A stretch of 64,000 nt of DNA from Rickettsiales bacterium (GTDB lineage: Bacteria; Pseudomonadota; Alphaproteobacteria; Rickettsiales; UBA1997), in assembly GCA_017999675.1 (NCBI GenBank), contig JAGNLL010000001.1:196472-260471 (forward strand), read 5' to 3'. A program made the translations under genes and the position numbers. Shown piece after piece: positions 4,837 through 30,500 of this stretch. Position 1 is the stretch's first letter; each line of letters starts with the position of its first letter. The notes below the pieces were generated by a model. That model saw nothing but the letters and a program-made list of their open reading frames with translations. It made no database searches and was not told the origin of the DNA.

Positions 4837-4865
4837 CCGTCATTGCGAGCGAAGCGTGGCAATCC
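4837..4865. repeat. Repeat family D, single arm
   Basis: CCGTCATTGCGAGCGAAGCGTGGCAATCC. The same unit occurs as an inverted pair at 28281..28360. Confidence 0.8.
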
Positions 4866-7651: not shown

Positions 7652-9202
7652 CTAAATCATGTTTTTTGGGTTAACCCATTCCTCAAATTGCGCTTCGGTT
7701 AAAAGGCCTGAAGCCAGTGCTGCCGCTTTTAGAGTGGTACCTTCCTTGTGCGCTTTTTTGGCAATTTTTGCAGCTGAGTCGTAGCCAATGTAGGGGTTAA
7801 GTGCGGTGACAAGCATTAGAGATTGGTCGAGAAGTTGCGTAATACGCTCGCGATTTGCCTCAATTCCGACCAAGCATTGGTCAACAAAACTGTTAATTCC
7901 GTCGTTTAACAAATTGAGCGATTCAATGACGTTGCGAATAATCATTGGGCGAAAAACGTTGAGTTCAAAATGTCCGTTCGAGCCGCCAATCGTTACAGCA
8001 ACGTGGTTTCCCATTACTTGGCAAGCAATCATTGTTAGCGCTTCACACTGCGTTGGGTTAACTTTACCCGGCATTATTGAAGAGCCTGGTTCGTTTTCAG
8101 GTAAGCTGATTTCACCCAAACCCGAACGTGGGCCCGAAGCCAAAAAGCGAATGTCGTTGGCAATTTTCATTACTGAAGTTGCGAGTGAATTTAGTGAGCC
8201 AGAAAAATTCACTAGCTCGTCGTTACAAGCCAAAGCGAAGAATTTATTTTTGTTGGTGTAGAAGCTGTCAGCGTGGTCTAATCCCAGTTTAGCAAGGTTT
8301 GAATCTTTTACCTTCCACACACCATCTGCCAAAGTGGTGCGACCTAAATCTAAATTTAAAACTTTTTGGTGTAGTGCTTTTAGACCAGAAACTTCGGTGA
8401 TTTTTTCAGCAAAATTCACTGCAAATTTTGGGTGACAATTAAGCCCAGTTCCAACTGCAGTGCCGCCTTGAGCCAAATGGACCACGTAAGAAAGCGACTG
8501 AGAAATAAACACTGCCGCTGTTTGAATTTGCACTTTGTAGGCTGAAAATTCTTGGCCCAAAGTCACTGGTGTTGCGTCTTGGGTGTGGGTGCGACCGATT
8601 TTAATAATGTCTAAAAACTCGGCTTCCTTTTTACCTAACTCATTGGCAAAGCGCACCAAAGTTGGTAGCAATTTCTCGTAAGTTGTAAGAACAGCTGCCA
8701 CGTGCATTGCGGTTGGGAAAGTGTCGTTTGAACTTTGTCCCAAATTTACGTGGTCGTTTGGATGCACCGGAGATTTTCCACCTTTTTGTCCAGTCACTTT
8801 TTCATTGGCAACTGAAGCAATTACCTCGTTGGTATTCATGTTGGTTTGAGTACCAGAGCCGGTTTGCCAAACTACGAGAGGAAAATGATTTTCGTAAAAC
8901 CAATCGAATTTGGCGAGGATTGTGTCAACCGCGTCAACAATTTTGTCGGCTAAATCGGGAGAGAATTTTTTGAACTCGTCAGATTTTGGATCAGCTGCCA
9001 TTAAGTCTTTGTTGGTAAGAGCCGCCGCTTTTTTGATTAGCAACATTGCGCGCACAACTTCTTTTGGCATTTTGTGGCCAGGGTTGTCGTTGCAGATTGG
9101 AAAGTTTTGTACAGAGCGCTGTGTTTGCGCGGCGTAGTAGGCGTCAAAAGGCACTTGAATTTCGCCGAAAGAGTCAGATTCAATACGAAAGTTTTTTGTC
9201 AT
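7652..9202 (-). CDS. fumC: Class II fumarate hydratase with lineage-specific insertions
   Basis: 516 aa. Motifs: [41 protein letters not shown], and a C-terminus [29 protein letters not shown] close to E. coli FumC. About 40 extra residues sit between ..ITEVSGLK and NKNKFFAL. Confidence 0.93.
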
Positions 9203-18176: not shown

Positions 18177-18686
18177 TTAGCTAGGATTGTCGTTTCTGTT
18201 TTTACGGAAAGCATCAATCGAAATGACTTTTGCCGACAAATCAACGTTGGAGGCGTTTTTTTCTGCCGATAAATTTTTATTGGCCTGATTTGGATCAGTT
18301 AAATCACCATTTTCTAAATCTTCTAAATCGCTGTAAGTCATGCTAAATTTTAGCGCAAAATTCATTGACGGGTCAGCAAAAGAAGTGATTGCTTTGTAAG
18401 GGATTAAAAGCTTTTCGTATTTGCCGTTAAAGCTTAGAGAAATTTTAAAATTATCCTGCTCAACCGCCAAAGACTTATATTGATGCTGCACGGCGATGGT
18501 CATTTCTTCGCTAAATTTTTCGAGCAGAGATTTTGGAATTGAAACCCCTGGAAAGCGCGTCATGAAAGTGATCATGAAATAATGTTTGCCGGGTAAGCCA
18601 GTTTTTTCGATTTTTTTGAGAGTTTCGTAAATCACCGAACGCATTGAGGTTTCGATGATATCATCATATCCAATTAAGTCTTGCAT
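18177..18686 (-). CDS. sspB: ClpXP adaptor SspB (alphaproteobacterial SspB-alpha type)
   Basis: The core LPGKHYFMITFMTRFPGVSIPKSLLEKFSEEMTIAVQHQY...ISLSFNGKYEKLLIPYKAITSFADPSMNFALKF parallels Caulobacter SspB-alpha (LPGEHHFFITF...MTIVLQHQF...LSFN...IPF.A...F.DP...FAL.F). I prefer ATG 18686 (MQDLIGYDD). The track start 18761 would run through the tmRNA 3' hairpin. Confidence 0.75.
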   Translation of the reverse strand: MQDLIGYDDIIETSMRSVIYETLKKIEKTGLPGKHYFMITFMTRFPGVSIPKSLLEKFSEEMTIAVQHQYKSLAVEQDNFKISLSFNGKYEKLLIPYKAITSFADPSMNFALKFSMTYSDLEDLENGDLTDPNQANKNLSAEKNASNVDLSAKVISIDAFRKNRNDNPS

Positions 18687-18704
18687 GAGGAATTTTGTTA
18701 AATG

Positions 18705-19185
18705 CGAGAAAGTGCCCGAGTTTCTGTTGACAGGCACTCGGGCGGGCCCCGATAAAATCACTTATACTAAGCAGCTAAAGCCACTGGAGCAAATTCGAAG
18801 TTATCATTAGCAAAGTTGTCGTTTGCATTTACTTTTTTGAACGGATGTCGCTTGGCTTTCGCCTCACAACCGGCAGTTTCTCAACCGGGTAAAATCAAAT
18901 CCTTTATCGCATGTCGAAAGCTGTGTCACCCCCAGAAGAAAAATCACTTTTGTTCGGGTAGAAAATTCAAGTATTTTGAGTGATAGCTTTGCTAAATGAA
19001 AAGTTCGAGGAGGGCCGCGTATTCCAATACGCAACCGACGAGAATCTTTTCATTTAGTGAAGCTAGCGCTCAAAAGACGCCGAATTTGGTGGAGGTGCTG
19101 GGTACTGCCCCCAGGTCCATGTACGTTTATTGCGAAGAGAGTTTATCACCATAGTCTTTTAGTCTTGCGACCGAAAGCGTGGCGT
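18705..19185 (-). ncRNA. ssrA: Circularly permuted (two-piece) tmRNA gene: acceptor piece (about 19185 to 19087), intervening hairpin (19086 to 18934), coding piece (18933 to about 18705)
   Basis: Reading the minus strand: ...GGACCUGGGGGCAGUACCCAGCACCUCCACCA ends at 19087 (T-arm-like hairpin, acceptor 3' strand CACCUCC, discriminator A, CCA). The segment from 18933 starts GGGGGUGACACAGCUUUCGACAUGCG, giving the complementary acceptor 5' strand GGGGGUG with a G3:U70 wobble plus the UUUCGACA motif. It is followed by the tag frame GCA AAC GAC AAC UUU GCU AAU GAU AAC UUC GAA UUU GCU CCA GUG GCU UUA GCU GCU UAG (ANDNFANDNFEFAPVALAA, 18826..18767) and a terminal hairpin GCCCGAGU/ACUCGGGC. The 5' and 3' boundaries are approximate. 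Confidence 0.8.
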
Positions 19186-19213
19186 AACCTAAGAACTAAA
19201 AAAATTTTGACAA
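19186..19213 (-). promoter_or_regulatory. Candidate sigma-70-like promoter for ssrA
   Basis: On the minus strand: TTGTCA (19213-19208), a 16-nt spacer, then TAGGTT (19191-19186). The -10 is weak and the call rests on position only. Confidence 0.25.
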
Positions 19214-19309
19214 GTAATGGTTAGGAAAAATCTTTAGAAATTAAAATTTCACTTCCTAGAGTGCGCCGAAATTCTTCGTTTAAAAATCCCCAAAAATCTC
19301 AAGTCAAAA

Positions 19310-21326: not shown

Positions 21327-22151
21327 CTAAACCTCAATCGTCACACAAACCGGACAATGATCAGAGGCTTTTTCTTGATCCCTTACACCCTTATCTTCAA
21401 TGGCAACCGCAGAAATTTTATCTGAGGCTTGCGACGACGCTAAAAGGTAATCAATCCTCATTCCCTTATTATGCTGCCACGAACCGCCGCGATAATCCCA
21501 CCAGCTAAAAGCTTGACTTTGGCCCGAAAAGGCGCGGTAAGAATCGACCAAACCTAAATTTAAAAGTGAGTGAAATTTTTGACGTTCAAGCGGGTGAAAA
21601 CAAACTGTGCCGTTCAAACTTTTTGCATCAAAAACATCAATATCCGCTGCTGCAACATTGTAGTCGCCGCCGAAAATTTGCATTTCGTCAAAGGCAAGAG
21701 TCTTAGAAAGGTGAGCTTTCAAACGCTCAAAAAATTTCATTTTGTAGACAAATTTTGCGCTATTTTCTAGCGCCTCATTTGGCGCTAAATCACCACCGCC
21801 ATTAGGCACGTAAATTGATGCCACACGAATTGCGGTGCCGCCAAAAGGTAAAACCGCTTCAATGTAGCGCGCTTGTTCATCAACTTCTCCATCCAGTGTT
21901 GGCAAGCCTTTAACCACATCTTCAATTTTAGATTTTGAAAGAATTGCCACACCATTGTAAGTTTTTTGACCCAAAACCGCAGCGTTGTATCCCGCGTCAA
22001 ACAAGGCGCAAAAAGGAAATTCTCCCTCCACACATTTCAACTCCTGCAACAAAACCACATCAGGATTAGAATTTTTCAACCACTCTAAAAGCCGCGGCAG
22101 ACGAGCTTTTACAGAGTTTACGTTGAAGCTAGCGATTTTGATTTTTGGCAT
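21327..22151 (-). CDS. xth: Exodeoxyribonuclease III
   Basis: 274 aa. Motifs: SFNVNS, LQELK, GDYNV, SDHCPV (EEP nuclease family). Confidence 0.9.
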   Translation of the reverse strand: MPKIKIASFNVNSVKARLPRLLEWLKNSNPDVVLLQELKCVEGEFPFCALFDAGYNAAVLGQKTYNGVAILSKSKIEDVVKGLPTLDGEVDEQARYIEAVLPFGGTAIRVASIYVPNGGGDLAPNEALENSAKFVYKMKFFERLKAHLSKTLAFDEMQIFGGDYNVAAADIDVFDAKSLNGTVCFHPLERQKFHSLLNLGLVDSYRAFSGQSQAFSWWDYRGGSWQHNKGMRIDYLLASSQASDKISAVAIEDKGVRDQEKASDHCPVCVTIEV

Positions 22152-24115: not shown

Positions 24116-24742
24116 ATGAATAAGCAAAAAATCGACCAAATTTTTGCAATTTGGCAGCAGCAAAATCCTCATCCAAAAACCGAGTTGGTTTTTACAAATC
24201 ACTACACGCTTTTGGTTGCCGTGGTGCTTTCGGCGCAAAGCACTGACGTTGGCGTAAACAAAGCAACGAAAGAGCTTTTTAAAGTTGCCAACACGCCAGA
24301 AAAAATGCTGAAACTGGGTGAAAAAAATCTAAAAAAATACATCAACACCATCGGCCTCTACAACGGCAAAGCAGCCAATATTATCGCGCTTTCAAAGCGA
24401 CTAGTTGAAGATTTTAATTCAGAAGTTCCTGAAAATTTTAACAGCCTAATTTCCCTGCCAGGTGTCGGCCAAAAAACCGCCAATGTCGTGTTAAACTGCG
24501 CCTTCGGCCACCCAACAATCGCCGTCGACACCCACGTTTTTCGCGTAGCAAACCGCCTAGGATTTGTCGACGAAACCACCCCCGAAAAAACCGAAACCGC
24601 CTTAATGAAAGCCATCCCCAAAAAATGGCAAACCCACGCCCATCACTGGATGATTCTGCACGGGCGCTATGTTTGTCAGGCAAGAAAACCGAAATGTGGC
24701 GAGTGTTTGGTTAGAGAATTTTGCAAGTTTTACTCGGTCTAA
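24116..24742 (+). CDS. nth: Endonuclease III
   Basis: 208 aa. HhH-GPD motif LPGVGQKTANVVL, catalytic D (VDTHVFRV), and a C-terminal 4Fe-4S Cys cluster CQARKPKCGECLVREFC. Confidence 0.92.
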   Translation: MNKQKIDQIFAIWQQQNPHPKTELVFTNHYTLLVAVVLSAQSTDVGVNKATKELFKVANTPEKMLKLGEKNLKKYINTIGLYNGKAANIIALSKRLVEDFNSEVPENFNSLISLPGVGQKTANVVLNCAFGHPTIAVDTHVFRVANRLGFVDETTPEKTETALMKAIPKKWQTHAHHWMILHGRYVCQARKPKCGECLVREFCKFYSV

Positions 24743-24744
24743 AG

Positions 24745-24790
24745 CCCCGCCCTCATTTTTACAAACCTCTTCTCCATTTTTTAAAAAACC
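24745..24790 (+). repeat. Left copy of an imperfect ~50-nt direct repeat bracketing the fic cassette
   Basis: CCCCGCCCTCATTTTTACAAACCTCTTCTCCATTTTTTAAAAAACC. The first 16 nt are identical to 27041-27056, and the rest is similar (AAA.CCT.TC...TTTT.TAAAAAA..CC). Confidence 0.5.
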
Positions 24791-24822
24791 AAGATTCCTC
24801 CCTTGCAAACCATAAGGTTATA

Positions 24823-24855
24823 CTTTACAGTTTATGAATCATAAAAACTGTAAGG
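24823..24855 (+). promoter_or_regulatory. Inverted repeat (candidate operator / RBS-occluding hairpin) just upstream of fic
   Basis: TTACAGTTT (24825-24833) and AAACTGTAA (24845-24853) are separated by ATGAATCATAA, which contains the palindrome ATGA-A-TCAT. The element ends 8 nt before the ATG and overlaps the AAGG Shine-Dalgarno. Confidence 0.35.
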
Positions 24856-24862
24856 TAAAAAA

Positions 24863-25846
24863 ATGGATTACAAAAAACTCACCGAAAAAAAGAAAATATT
24901 AGATAAGCACAGGCCTTTTGACGCCGCGCTGGTAAAGAACCTAGAAGAATGGTTTAGAATCGAATTAACCTACACCAGCAACGCCATCGAAGGAAACACT
25001 TTGTCGCGCGCCGAAACCGCTTTGGTTGTTGAAAAAGGTTTAACTATCGGCGGTAAATCAATAACTGAACATCTTGAAGCAACTAATACCGCTCACGCTC
25101 TCGATTTTGTTAAAACACAAATCAAGCGCAAACCAAGTGAGATTAAAGAAAAAGACATCCTAAAAATTCACGAAATTATTTTAAGCAGAATCAATAAAGA
25201 AGATGCCGGCCTTTACCGTCGTGTTCCTGTGCGCATTTCTGGCTCTGGCGTTGTTTTGCCAAATCCAAAAAAAGTCCAAGACCTAATGGATGAATTTTTC
25301 TTGTGGCTAAAAAAAGAAACCAAACTTCACGCCGTAGAATTAGCCGCCGAAGCCCATTATCGTTTAGTCACAATTCACCCTTTCATTGATGGCAATGGCC
25401 GAACCGCGCGCCTGTTGATGAATATGATTTTAATGATGAAAGGTTTTCCACCAGCAATCATCCGCAAAAATGACCGCTTGGCCTATATTAAATCTTTAGA
25501 AAAACCGCAGTTGGTTAATGGCGAAGGCGATTCAAAAAATGATTATTTCAAGCTGATTGCGGCAGCCGTTGATCGTTCGCTAAACATTTATCTCAAAGCA
25601 ATTGAAGGCGAAACCGAAGCGCCGGAGAATGAAAAACTTCTAAAAATTGGCGAGCTTGCCAAAGCAACAAATCAAACCGTTCCAACTATTAGACATTGGA
25701 CAAAAGAGGGTTTGTTGAGAATTGCAGAAGTCACAGAATCTGGCTATCAAATGTATGATGCTGAGATGATTGAGCGGGTAAAAAAAATTCAGGAGATGAA
25801 GGAAAAACGAATGACGCTTGGAGAGATTAAAAAGGATTTGAAATAA
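24863..25846 (+). CDS. Fic (Fido) family protein, class II (internal inhibitory helix), fused to a C-terminal MerR-type HTH
   Basis: 327 aa. Inhibitory motif TSNAIEGN [(S/T)xxxE(G/N)], active-site motif HPFIDGNGRTARLLMN, and a C-terminus IGELAKATNQTVPTIRHWTKEGLL...SGYQMYD like the N-terminal HTH of MerR regulators. Confidence 0.8.
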   Translation: MDYKKLTEKKKILDKHRPFDAALVKNLEEWFRIELTYTSNAIEGNTLSRAETALVVEKGLTIGGKSITEHLEATNTAHALDFVKTQIKRKPSEIKEKDILKIHEIILSRINKEDAGLYRRVPVRISGSGVVLPNPKKVQDLMDEFFLWLKKETKLHAVELAAEAHYRLVTIHPFIDGNGRTARLLMNMILMMKGFPPAIIRKNDRLAYIKSLEKPQLVNGEGDSKNDYFKLIAAAVDRSLNIYLKAIEGETEAPENEKLLKIGELAKATNQTVPTIRHWTKEGLLRIAEVTESGYQMYDAEMIERVKKIQEMKEKRMTLGEIKKDLK

Positions 25847-25919
25847 AAAATTTTAATGTTGGGTGTTGGGATTTGGCGCCTTTACCGTCTCAACCCCACC
25901 CTTTCTTTATTTAGGTTAG

Positions 25920-26861
25920 TTAAGCTGCCATTTTATCTTCGATTCTTACTCCAAGTGATGAAGATTTATCTAATTGGATATTCTTGTTTAAAAATATTGA
26001 TGAATATCGCTCAACAATTCCAGATCTCGCTTGCTCTAACAAGTCTGCAAACTTTACATCTAGATCATCACTTATGCTGTGCAAATTCTCCTTATCTTTA
26101 GAATAGTAGGGAGAATATTCTATGTAACAAAGAAGGGCCATGGCAGCATTATATTCTTTAGGAAGAGTTATTTCTTTGTTATCTATTTGTACTACAGTTG
26201 GATCAGCTGCATATATTTTACTTATGATCTCAATATACTTTTTGATATCCTGTCCTAAGTACGACTTAGGGTCAGTCTCTTGACCAAATCTATCCAATGT
26301 AAGACACATATGTTCTTTTGCCATTTTTGATGGCTCATCACCAAATCTAGCTTTGATAAGCTCCAGATAAATAAAGAACTGAAATGCAAGTATGCCAGAA
26401 TAAATAAGTGAATTTAGATTTTCATTGTCACTCAAATTAGAATTTTCTTCCGCGAAACTTAAAGGCTTAGTCTGATTTATGAAGTCGTATATAGGGAGAT
26501 TTGCAATCGCAAACAAAGTAAGTTTCTTTTTAGGCCAGCCATCTAAAATTAGATCAATAATAAAAGAATCTTTGTTGCCCGTTATTATATATCGAATTGA
26601 CCAACCAACTCCATAGCTAAACGATGCAACTAAAATACCAATTATAGCCGGAACTATACCTTCAGAGAATAAACCCCATACACTAATCATAAGTATAACG
26701 GTACCAATTATCGTAAAAATTGAGTATACGACTGTTGCAAGGCGTTCTTTCATAATTTTTATTAAATGAGAAAAGTGATTACTAAATGGTTTAGCTAATT
26801 CTTTATTTAAATATTGTAAATACTGGCTGCACAAATTCAGGAGAATGCTTCTATTTTGCAA
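25920..26861 (-). CDS. Hypothetical membrane protein, A+T-rich (probable foreign origin)
   Basis: 313-aa ORF (TTG start in the track; the first ATG at 26753 gives MKERLATVVYS...). Two predicted TM helices (VVYSIFTIIGTVILMISVWGLF; IVPAIIGILVASFSYGVGW) precede a ~220-aa soluble domain in which I recognise no motif. Hand counts of two 60-nt lines give 30-33% G+C, against 35-50% in neighbouring genes. ATA and TTA codons are frequent. Confidence 0.55.
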   Translation of the reverse strand: MQNRSILLNLCSQYLQYLNKELAKPFSNHFSHLIKIMKERLATVVYSIFTIIGTVILMISVWGLFSEGIVPAIIGILVASFSYGVGWSIRYIITGNKDSFIIDLILDGWPKKKLTLFAIANLPIYDFINQTKPLSFAEENSNLSDNENLNSLIYSGILAFQFFIYLELIKARFGDEPSKMAKEHMCLTLDRFGQETDPKSYLGQDIKKYIEIISKIYAADPTVVQIDNKEITLPKEYNAAMALLCYIEYSPYYSKDKENLHSISDDLDVKFADLLEQARSGIVERYSSIFLNKNIQLDKSSSLGVRIEDKMAA

Positions 26862-27040
26862 TCACATCATCTTGATTCCAAATGAAAAACTAACAGAGAT
26901 CCTCGATGCTTTGCATCAAGTATGACGACTACTTTAAAATAATGAGAGCTTAAGCACAACACACCCTCTAGCCCAAAAGTTTTTTTTCTGGAAAATTAGC
27001 ATCAGCCAAAAGATAGTCTGCGCCACTTATTTGAAAACCT

Positions 27041-27093
27041 CCCCGCCCTCATTTTTGGAAAGCCTTCCGAAATCTCTTTTCTTAAAAAATACC
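27041..27093 (+). repeat. Right copy of the imperfect direct repeat bracketing the fic cassette
   Basis: CCCCGCCCTCATTTTTGGAAAGCCTTCCGAAATCTCTTTTCTTAAAAAATACC, ending immediately before the metK GTG. Confidence 0.5.
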
Positions 27094-28251
27094 GTGCCAA
27101 AAAATTTTCTATTCACCTCAGAGTCAGTGTCTGAAGGTCATCCCGACAAAGTTTGTGATCAAATTTCTGACGCTTTAGTTGATGCTTACCTTGCTAAAAA
27201 CCCTTATTCGCGACTCGCGATTGAAACTTTTGCTACCACCAACACCGTAATTATCGGTGGCGAAATTCGTGCACCGGAAATTTCTAAAAGCGAAATTGAA
27301 AATATTATTCGCGCTACCGTCAAAGATATTGGCTACGATCAGACCGGTTTTCATTTTGAAAATTTGAAAATTACTAACCTGCTTCACGAGCAATCAGCTG
27401 ACATTGCCATGGGCGTTGATGCTTCTGGCTCTAAAGACGAAGGCGCTGGCGATCAAGGAATTATGTTTGGCTACGCTTGCCGCGAAACCGACGTTTTAAT
27501 GCCTGCCGCCATTTATTACGCGCACCGAATTTTGCACAATATCATGGACGCGGTTAGATCTGGAGAGCTTCCAAAACTTGGGCCCGATGCTAAAAGCCAA
27601 GTGACTTTGTGGTATGAAAACGGCCAGCCTGTGCGCGCTGAAACTGTTTTGGTGTCGATTCAACACCCCGAAGGAACAACGCAGCAACAAGTGCGCGACC
27701 TAATTCGCCCTTACGTTGAAAGCTCGCTACCAAAAGGCTGGATGTGCGCTGAAGATAAATTTTTGGTTAACCCAACTGGCAAATTTGTAATTGGTGGGCC
27801 TGACGGTGACGCTGGACTTACCGGCAGAAAGATCATCGTCGACACTTACGGCGGCGCAGCACCGCATGGTGGTGGTGCTTTTTCTGGAAAAGATCCAACC
27901 AAGGTTGATCGCTCTGCCGCCTACATGGCGCGCTATTTGGCGAAGAATATTGTGGCGGCTGATCTTGCCGCGCGCTGCACAATTCAAATTGCTTACGCCA
28001 TTGGCGTTTCAAAACCTTTAGCGCTTTATGTTGATACGCATAACACTGGCGCAGTTGGAGAAGATTTGGTAAAAAAAATTAACGAGTTGGTTGATTTAAG
28101 CCCGCGTGGAATTCGCACGCATTTGAATTTGAACAAACCAATTTACAAACGCACGGCAACCTACGGCCACTTTGGTCGCACGCCAGATGCTGAAGGTGGA
28201 TTTTCGTGGGAAAAAACTGACTTAGCTGAGAAGTTGAAGAAGTTGGCGTAA
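27094..28251 (+). CDS. metK: S-adenosylmethionine synthase
   Basis: [28 protein letters not shown] and a conserved C-terminus. I prefer GTG 27094 ((M)[11 protein letters not shown], 385 aa) to the track TTG 27031, which reads through the direct repeat. Confidence 0.93.
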
Positions 28252-28280
28252 GTTTTTTACACCGAGTCTTCGTTAGCACT

Positions 28281-28360
28281 GGATTGCCGCGCTGCGCTCG
28301 CAATGACGGCGTGGGAAGGTCACTCCTAGCACCGTCATTGCGAGCGCAGCGTGGCAATCC
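28281..28360. repeat. Repeat family D, inverted pair forming a ~29-bp hairpin
   Basis: GGATTGCCGCGCTGCGCTCGCAATGACGG (28281-28309), a 22-nt loop, then CCGTCATTGCGAGCGCAGCGTGGCAATCC (28332-28360). There is one mismatch. Confidence 0.85.
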
Positions 28361-28388
28361 ATTAACACAATCACACTTTACATTAATC

Positions 28389-29893: not shown

Positions 29894-29921
29894 CAGTTGT
29901 TTCACCACATTTGTTTTGAAT

Positions 29922-30197
29922 ATGAAAAACCCTATTTTTAGCTGGAGTGAGGAGAAAAATAAAATTCTCAAAGAGTCTCGAAACATTTCTTTTGAAAAAA
30001 TCATTACCGCGATTCAGGAAGGTGATTTGTTGGAAATTATTGCAAATCCCAGCAAAAATCACGAAGAGCAAGATTGTTTGGTGGTTGGCATTAAAGACTA
30101 CGCTTACATAGTTCCCTACGTTGAAAATGAAGAAGGGATTTTTTTAAAAACAATTTATCCGAGCAGAAAATATACGAGATTTTTACTTAAAAAATGA
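29922..30197 (+). CDS. BrnT-like (DUF497-related) toxin candidate
   Basis: 91 aa from ATG 29922. FSWSEEKNKILKESRNISFEKIITAI ... IVPYVENEEGIFLKTIYPSRKYT fits the F.WDE.KN......RGISFE / IFLKT.IPSRK pattern of small toxins that pair with CopG-type antitoxins. Confidence 0.5.
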   Translation: MKNPIFSWSEEKNKILKESRNISFEKIITAIQEGDLLEIIANPSKNHEEQDCLVVGIKDYAYIVPYVENEEGIFLKTIYPSRKYTRFLLKK

Positions 30198-30209
30198 CGA
30201 GCCCGATTT

Positions 30210-30500
30210 ATGAAAAACGATAAAAAAATTTACAGCGCAGCCGAGTTAAAATTGTTCAAAAAGATCGAGAGTGGCAAAGGCAAAGCCTTACCAAAAAAAG
30301 ATTTTACCAAAGAAAAAAACAAACTTCAAAAGATGGCCGCCAACACTTTGAAAAGGAAATCGATTAATATTCGAGTAATTGAAAGCGACATCGAAAAGAT
30401 CAAGGCCATAGCGCTAGATGAAGGCATACCTTACCAAACTTTTATTACTTCGATATTGCACAAGGTGGCTACGGGAAAGTTGGCGGGTTATCAAATTTAA
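30210..30500 (+). CDS. BrnA/CopG-family (ribbon-helix-helix) antitoxin candidate
   Basis: 96 aa. The C-terminus KSINIRVIESDIEKIKAIALDEGIPYQTFITSILHKVATGKL matches the I.IR....l..lK..A...GIPYQTLI.SILHKY signature. Confidence 0.6.
   Translation: MKNDKKIYSAAELKLFKKIESGKGKALPKKDFTKEKNKLQKMAANTLKRKSINIRVIESDIEKIKAIALDEGIPYQTFITSILHKVATGKLAGYQI

Follow-up and report, generated by a model that had tools for sequence, protein, structure and literature searches.

Two unrelated accessory genes inserted between nth and metK in a Rickettsiales bacterium, bracketed by a 16-nucleotide repeat that is probably not an attachment-site core

The DNA considered here, which we call the window, is a 64,000-nucleotide stretch of a Rickettsiales bacterium genome (NCBI GenBank assembly GCA_017999675.1, contig JAGNLL010000001.1, positions 196,472 to 260,471 of the forward strand), and it is the interval between its genes nth and metK that concerns us (Table 1). 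Contigs identical to the window come from wastewater metagenomes. Two exact copies of a 16-mer, CCCCGCCCTCATTTTT, stand in this interval on the plus strand, the left one just behind nth and the right one in the leader of metK. Open reading frames (ORFs) and Pfam matches bear out that just two genes lie between the copies, in convergent orientation: one for a Fic protein with a MerR-type helix-turn-helix (HTH) domain (Fic-MerR; the gene is called fic below), and one for a membrane protein (gene X). The neighbours of the insert that carries them are murC, nth, metK, crcB and rluC. A sequence-only reading of this DNA had taken the repeats for att-like scars, the left and right attachment (att) sites of an island in which fic and a membrane partner were integrated together. 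The two copies themselves are borne out by a search of the window, the left copy does follow the nth stop codon (24740-24742), although by 2 nt and not by the 3 nt given there, and metK does start with the GTG at 27094. We find, at the same time, that fic and X are two unrelated accessory genes that arrived separately, and we read the left copy as neither a site-specific att core nor the mark of a mobile unit.

Table 1. Features of the nth-metK interval, in window coordinates
Feature	Position	Strand	Basis and remarks
nth (endonuclease III)	24116..24742	+	Pfam HhH-GPD, EndIII_4Fe-2S
Left 16-mer CCCCGCCCTCATTTTT	24745..24760	+	CCCCGCCC part lineage-specific; TCATTTT(T) also at the fic-cassette boundary of the X5-X8 relative
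fic-cassette block	24757..25818	+	~85% DNA identity to cassettes elsewhere; blastn against L080, L084, L085; alignment A4
Putative MerR-type fic promoter	24803..24833	+	-35 TTGCAA 24803-24808, 19-nt spacer, -10 CAGTTT 24828-24833 (TAGTTT in relatives)
16-nt-arm palindrome/hairpin over fic -10 and ribosome-binding site	24818..24860	+	inverted repeat I8; fold z-score -2.9
Fic-MerR, 327 aa	24863..25846	+	class II (FICD-like) Fic domain and C-terminal MerR HTH (260-325); Pfam, PDB sequence search, motif scan, PADLOC
Hairpin between convergent fic and X, terminator-like	25860..25898		fold -17.4 kcal/mol, z-score just -0.7; weak
Gene X, 277 aa, ATG at 26753	25920..26753	-	two transmembrane helices at the N-terminus, soluble domain helical; orphan, low G+C
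59 nt upstream of X, travelling with X	26754..26812	-	identity to L004 90.6% over 25920-26812, ending there
Palindromic repeat element fragment	26887..26928		88% identical to an arm of the inverted-repeat element at L021 10704-10744
B1 (TTTTCTGGAAAATTAG) and spacer	26984..27040	+	relic of the 3' end of an OMP-like (outer-membrane-protein-like) gene; native, outside the insert; alignment A2
Right 16-mer, original copy	27041..27056	+	pyrimidine-rich tract of the conserved metK leader
Hairpin/palindrome TTTTGGAAAGCCTTCCGAAA	27053..27072	+	in every metK leader recovered
metK (S-adenosylmethionine synthetase)	27094..28251	+	Pfam; GTG start aligns with the ATG of relatives

That the interval holds an insertion is seen by comparison with relatives. 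A scan of species-representative genomes with Nth yielded some 24 freshwater metagenome-assembled genomes (MAGs; Nth identity 77-88%) that share the gene order xth, acetyltransferase, murC, nth. Empty sites with one repeat copy, for which the sequence-only reading had proposed to look, are found in at least seven genomes: nth is followed directly by metK, crcB and rluC, with a single copy of the tract that holds the right 16-mer, at loci L012, L014, L015 and L018, also at L094, L129 and L155. The nth-metK spacers of these relatives measure ~70 to 275 nt, and one of these empty sites came from a context look-up for protein P0146. DNA homology between the window and L014 or L015 stops at 24726, the last ~5 nth codons differing from those of relatives, and restarts at 26984; the window-specific segment is therefore 24727-26983, a lineage-specific insertion. 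The genes downstream of nth are highly variable across the clade, with several different ones among the relatives.

The empty sites read, in order, nth, B1, spacer, tract, hairpin and metK. B1 is the sequence TTTTCTGGAAAWTTAG (26984-26999 in the window), kept in the metK leaders of the empty-site relatives, and ~40 nt beyond it come the pyrimidine-rich tract and then the hairpin TTTTGGAAAGCCTTCCGAAA (27041-27072 in the window). The tract is the 16-mer itself, CCCCGCCCTCATTTTT, in the window and in L015; it reads CCCCGACCTCATTTTT in L014 and CCCCGCTGTTTTTTT in L012 and L018, and CCCACCCCTCTTTTTT is a further variant among metK leaders. Scanning metagenome contigs for exact matches to the hairpin pattern brought up more metK leaders (L103, L104/L145, L115, L118), their tracts still more variable. 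In the more distant relatives L103, L115 and L118 the gene upstream of metK encodes an OMP-like protein with a signal peptide and the C-terminus ...FQKY(S/A)GKLAL(I/L)DSxYTTVRIGYLxxF*, and the DNA that matches B1 and the spacer encodes ...FQKYSGKLALIDSHYTTVRIGYLHSF* there. Since B1 encodes the QKYSGKL of this protein, B1 and the spacer in the window are a relic of the 3' end of the OMP-like gene, an ancestral stretch that runs on unbroken into tract, hairpin and metK. This bears directly on whether fic and X could be the ancestral occupants of the site, lost from the relatives by recombination between the direct repeats. Direct repeats can indeed mediate deletion; such a deletion, however, would have taken B1 and the spacer as well, and because all empty sites retain them, loss by recombination between the copies is excluded. 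With nearest and more distant relatives (L012, L018) alike empty, and with X recent and of foreign composition, we consider ancestry followed by loss extremely improbable.

The same elements decide how the repeats are to be understood. B1 and the spacer, ~60 nt, separate nth from the tract in the empty sites, and in the window they stand beside the right copy only (26984-27040). A crossover at a core site would leave them on nth, beside the left copy, and on this geometry the reading as att scars fails; the left copy is simply unlike the product of such a crossover. The insert, moreover, ends at 26983, so that the right 16-mer does not lie at its edge. There is, all the same, a likeness to integrase-type genomic islands, in that an exact direct repeat brackets foreign genes and that single-copy empty sites exist. 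In favour of a two-gene module, the X homologue in L004 also adjoins a Fic-domain gene, though one of a different subfamily. What sets the locus apart from such islands is the arrangement of the flanks, a core of just 16 nt whose right copy is 57 nt inside native sequence, the lack of an integrase and of a tRNA target, and a cargo that is not a unit: the genes lie apart in all other contexts, they differ in G+C and in synonymous divergence (dS), and in a close relative fic occupies the site while X and the intact repeat are missing. Searches of ORFs, Pfam and tRNA genes found neither a recombinase nor a tRNA at the locus. On all these grounds we regard site-specific integration of a two-gene island as very unlikely. 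Weak matches to IS607 (E 0.003) and to a 'transposase' (E 0.0016) fall on the MerR HTH alone and were set aside. An insertion sequence or transposon was likewise rejected: no inverted repeats were found at the insert boundaries, there is no transposase, and the repeat does not abut the right end. No excised or deleted form joined at the repeats is seen in the contigs of four wastewater runs.

The repeat is also shorter than the imperfect one of ~50 nt that had been described. Ungapped extension of the 16-mer reaches 21 nt at 90% identity (family D6), and the 40 nt beyond each copy, aligned together, are not better than 4% of shuffles. The 40 nt that follow the left copy, compared with the fic upstream region of four other loci, beat 2000 of 2000 shuffles, so that the ~50-nt repeat resolves into a 16-nt exact repeat and a chance likeness: the resemblance beyond the 16-mer is an A/T-rich coincidence, and the sequence after the left copy is part of the fic gene's own upstream region. 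The 16-mer itself is another matter. At two mismatches or fewer its only matches in the window are these two copies, where shuffles give a mean of 0.09 and reach two matches in 1 of 100 cases; at one mismatch or fewer, in all the loci fetched by then, it is seen solely in metK leaders and at the left junction, and not upstream of many unrelated genes. Neither chance nor a dispersed regulatory motif accounts for such a distribution. The motif upstream of rpmH that the sequence-only reading had called related has only CCCCGCC in common with it, a word that occurs five times in the window (128 kb on both strands), two of the five being the 16-mer copies. Coincidence, which the earlier reading had itself named as a caveat, gains something from the fact that half of the repeat (TCATTTT) already stands at the cassette boundary in a relative. 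The shuffles weigh against it, however, as does the exact abutment of CCCCGCCC on TCATTTT, a rare word in a genome of 41% G+C, and we hold it to be highly improbable.

That relative is found in four runs of 2025 (X5-X8) and is ~92% identical to the window. It has murC, nth and fic contiguous on one contig (6264 nt in X5, 6203 nt in X8), with the same left boundary of fic as the window. Its homology to the window ends at 24723, gives way to 55 nt, TGAGTTTGAGAAACAATAAAACTCTTACCGTAAGCACTCGCCACTAGCTAAGTCA, that hold a different nth tail and stop, and restarts at 24757 (TTTTACAAAC...); at the junction, ...CTAAGTCA meets TTTTACAAAC where in the window CCCCGCCCTCA meets TTTTTACAAAC. Although without CCCCGCCC, the relative carries TCATTTT at the boundary of its cassette. 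Only CCCCGCCC is thus lineage-specific in the left copy, and the remainder is a microhomology common to cassette boundary and leader tract. Depth is zero across all of X (25909-26940), beyond 25874 the 3' end of fic gives way to different sequence, the DNA just before B1 looks like a palindromic repeat element, and the right-hand tract shows no differences. Thus fic is present at the same place without X and without an intact left 16-mer, from which it follows that fic preceded X at the site or that X was lost in the relative. Comparison of the 36 nt after this relative's nth stop with the window junction, the metK leader and the fic upstream region gave nothing significant, permissive alignments being ambiguous.

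The distribution and divergence of the two genes likewise speak for separate arrivals, and the sequence-only reading's suggestion of a functional pair does not survive them. The fic gene occurs in at least six other contexts and never adjoins X. It follows KilA-N and unknown genes in L080 and precedes DUF1993 and a HEPN/nucleotidyltransferase pair in L081 and L086-L088; on the contig of P0048 it stands between yidC and dnaK, in L085 it comes after ispG, and in L082/L083 its immediate upstream neighbour is a tRNA gene. X, for its part, is found in at least four other contexts without Fic-MerR, all different: beside an unrelated Fic-domain gene and a Ymh-family gene (L004), between a radical-SAM gene and an unknown gene (L006-L009), and in L005 and L010. 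The co-occurrence check that had been proposed for the pair accordingly finds them apart in every other context. They differ in age as well. Between the window's fic and the copies elsewhere dS is 0.88-1.09 and non-synonymous divergence (dN) 0.04-0.07 (dN/dS ~0.05), against a dS of 0.7-1.8 for housekeeping genes in these or comparable genomes. Strong purifying selection on a gene long resident in the clade, and not recent transfer, therefore accounts for the high protein identity. X and its nearest homologue (L004) have a dS of 0.25. The lower G+C noted for X at the outset is confirmed (0.333, with 0.27 at third codon positions, against 0.406 for the window and 0.40 for fic), and low G+C and low dS together make X a recent, compositionally foreign arrival.

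Overall, we believe that 24727-26983 is probably a composite of separate arrivals at a rearrangement-prone spot, with the left 16-mer a patch of metK leader sequence laid down at a microhomology joint. The homology of the window's fic cassette with cassettes elsewhere starts at 24757/24758, within the T-run of the 16-mer, and the cassette is 5'-truncated, the homology among copies elsewhere extending ~385 nt further upstream. The ancestral order would have been nth, OMP-gene relic, tract, hairpin and metK. Behind nth and ahead of B1 it would have received a 5'-truncated copy of the fic cassette, which is widespread in this clade; the leader tract would then, in the window lineage, have recombined with the cassette boundary at TCATTTT, so that CCCCGCCC came to stand before fic. 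This could have happened by unequal exchange, with the resulting tandem duplication trimmed or deleted afterwards, or by a template switch that left a templated patch (filler) of 8-16 nt. X, with the 59-nt stretch upstream of it, would have come separately. The left 16-mer would thus be the footprint of illegitimate (microhomology or template-switch) recombination at the nth-fic joint. In these respects the locus resembles the genomic islets that microhomology makes at intergenic hot spots: a lineage-specific insert without a recombinase, a joint in 7 nt of microhomology, a short templated copy at the joint, palindromic repeat elements nearby and variable genes after nth. It is unlike them in that the patch is copied from 2.3 kb away and is still perfect.

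Several points weigh against this account. The patch-forming route is one that we infer, and it calls for a pair of breakpoints, of which one must fall precisely where CCCCGCCC begins on the left. A left copy still perfect at 16 of 16 may reflect function or gene conversion, and CACTCGCC...TCATTTT in the X5-X8 junction may be a left copy in decay, in which case the duplication is older than assumed; that junction, in addition, was assembled from the loose ends of contigs and is not one full record. Variation among the nth tails is too great for the events to be polarised, and contigs are blind to rare variants, so that excised forms could escape the contig search. On this account the locus is a case of ordinary genome plasticity, of patchwork accretion at a hot spot, and it serves as a caution: a repeat, foreign-looking genes and empty sites can together mimic an att-bounded island where flank geometry and an intermediate genome show patchwork.

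Function offers another explanation for a perfect left copy. The 16-mer may be a cis element (a promoter, leader RNA or protein site), the left copy placing fic, or termination after nth, under metK-type control. The right copy does stand in a leader whose tract and hairpin are kept in at least 12 relatives, and to this extent the regulatory alternative raised by the sequence-only reading holds. The left copy, however, is outside the conserved promoter region of fic, which starts ~60 nt before the ATG and well downstream of the 16-mer; the invariant hairpin is missing from it, and the tract precedes fic in none of the other cassettes. Even from one metK leader to the next the tract is variable, and in the fetched loci the 16-mer is upstream of no other gene. 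Consensus scans for promoters and terminators gave nothing at either copy, RNA folds at both copies are not better than shuffles, and no riboswitch or other RNA family of Rfam was found at gathering score in the whole window or at lax E-values in both repeat regions. We therefore think a cis-regulatory role for the repeat unlikely. One candidate, a PAGEV match at 26856-26887, is partial (32 nt, the first hairpin; 21 bits against a gathering score of 61) and was taken as chance.

Further from the evidence, and in our judgement quite unlikely, is a less familiar arrangement, in which the nth 3' end and the spot just ahead of the metK tract would serve as a gene-capture site for a recombination activity encoded elsewhere, CCCCGCCC-TCATTTT being its recognition or crossover sequence, or in which tract and hairpin are a new metK cis element, part of which fic has co-opted. 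It is suggested by the left neighbours of the tract, of which there are at least three kinds (OMP-like gene, nth, fic/X), by the variable genes after nth and by the perfect left copy. Were gene capture to be true, single genes such as fic and X would insert without carrying a recombinase.

The Fic-MerR protein deserves description in its own right. Its Pfam Fic match scores 91.8 bits (cut-off 24); the catalytic motif HxFx(D/E)GNGRxxR is present as HPFIDGNGRTAR (residues 172-183), and the inhibitory motif (S/T)xxxE(G/N) as SNAIEG (residues 39-44), N-terminal to the Fic core, which together place it in class II. The best solved relative in a PDB sequence search is human FICD (E 1.5e-39, residues 19-246). 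No ORF for an antitoxin of the FicTA (class I) kind was found; the 120 nt upstream are non-coding and the inhibitory motif is within Fic itself, and X neither has this motif nor is co-distributed with Fic-MerR. The MerR_1 match (residues 261-324, 61.5 bits) is C-terminal with no effector domain after it, the last 68 residues being the HTH, and the layout of MerR regulators (N-terminal HTH, dimerisation helix, C-terminal effector domain) is not that of Fic-MerR. Class II proteins such as FICD/HYPE and SoFic, the latter with a C-terminal HTH, share the catalytic and N-terminal inhibitory motifs, and a DNA-binding domain follows the Fic core here as in SoFic; the difference is a C-terminus that is a bare MerR-type HTH without an effector-binding domain.

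Upstream of the gene, the ~60 nt before the fic ATG are kept in all cassettes and read TTG(A/C)AA, a 19-nt spacer and (T/C)AGTTT, a putative promoter that we recognise from its sequence and that a consensus promoter scan did not list. The target promoters of MerR regulators have an over-long spacer, of 19-20 bp, with a palindrome in it. The palindrome that overlies it, in which by eye two arm positions are changed on both sides in L082, is probably the operator for the protein's own MerR HTH. It is likeliest, to judge from motifs and promoter, that Fic-MerR acts as an AMP-transferase or de-AMPylase under self-inhibition and as a repressor at the MerR-type promoter of its own gene. Literature searches turned up no characterised Fic-MerR fusion and nothing specific on PDC-S04, one of two PADLOC models that match the protein (PDC-S04, E 1.3e-30; SoFic, E 1.7e-27). 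The likeness to these models extends to the surroundings of fic in relatives, where HEPN/nucleotidyltransferase, Zeta toxin, KilA-N and other Fic genes occur. PDC-S04 is itself a candidate defence gene, and the dS and very strong purifying selection of the window's fic look more like those of a resident regulator or enzyme than of a defence gene of fast turnover. With 7912 relatives at E <1e-30, the best 120 of them all at least 83% identical, the family is very large and under very strong conservation; as FICD-like Fic proteins with a MerR HTH and a MerR-style promoter of their own, its members may be a by-product worth attention.

Other fic loci show further variation. A conserved, apparently non-coding region of ~385 nt lies upstream of fic in L080, L081 and L084-L088 and has no Rfam match. 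L080 holds a second copy of this region (8359-8708) with just the first 5 fic codons and a deletion between two ATAAGGT repeats, and this copy is therefore the remnant of a lost second fic. In L082/L083 (1-190) the cassette begins ~25 nt after a tRNA gene, with homology from the promoter (CTTGAAAACC) onward only, and the point of 5' truncation differs in each context. A contig of run X3 (1188 nt, window 24663-25714) represents a strain variant that has 2 differences at the left junction and departs from the window after 25714; it may be the source of P0009, a 328-aa Fic protein 97% identical to the window's, and would then hint at recombination within fic.

Gene X is an orphan. Its relatives number 7 among 5.8 billion clustered proteins and 19 among 1.84 billion representatives, and there is no match to it in Pfam, NCBIfam, PADLOC or PHROG. 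For an AlphaFold2 model (predicted local distance difference test, pLDDT, 76) Foldseek gives no match in either the PDB or BFVD, and distant relatives carry no informative Pfam domain, save one with Sel1 repeats. From the predicted structure, X is probably a membrane protein, bitopic or hairpin in topology, whose soluble domain is helical, and this small family of membrane-anchored proteins without a recognisable fold may also merit attention. The X homologue of L006-L009 is split by a frameshift (177 aa, the rest in another frame) and decaying, which fits a dispensable accessory gene. On the metK side of X, contigs of run X1 have a joint that 'goes back' at the palindromic fragment 26887-26928.

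A third by-product is the hairpin of the metK leader. It sits ~20-35 nt before the metK start and is invariant among the leaders recovered, so that there is no covariation to see. No Rfam family and no promoter-like or terminator-like site matches it, and among S-adenosylmethionine (SAM)-responsive riboswitches (SAM-II, SAM-V, SAM/SAH) none matches 26850-27200 at the gathering score or at E ≤10. An invariant, Rfam-less hairpin before metK in a freshwater and wastewater clade of alphaproteobacteria may deserve a closer look.

Beyond the interval, several observations add to the picture of the region. Just 3' of metK, at 28280-28361, lies a perfect palindromic element with 30-nt arms (...CCGTCATTGCGAGCGCAGCGTGGCAATCCA), also seen at 4838-4851 and, as the fragment described above, at 26887-26928. 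Its depth in metagenome contigs is 100-700, against ~13 in the flanks, and it has many loop variants, which make it a high-copy element resembling repetitive extragenic palindromes (REP) or miniature inverted-repeat transposable elements (MITE); similar elements come after nth in L016, L024 and L155. After rluC, a pair of small genes of low G+C (~0.33) at 29916-30500 encodes a BrnT-toxin-like protein (93 aa, E 2e-5) and a CopG-antitoxin-like protein (96 aa, E 3e-5), both matches under the Pfam cut-offs, and the pair is probably another accessory insertion, of toxin-antitoxin type. A second variable spot lies 2.5 kb from the first, where xth and the acetyltransferase gene abut at 22151 in the window and are parted by inserts of 1-2 kb in L012, L015, L017, L022, L023, L029 and L155, that of L155 including a DNA methylase gene. 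Finally, the window carries at 18676-19227 a two-piece (permuted) transfer-messenger RNA (tmRNA) of the alphaproteobacterial kind, with the tag peptide ANDNFANDNFEFAPVALAA.

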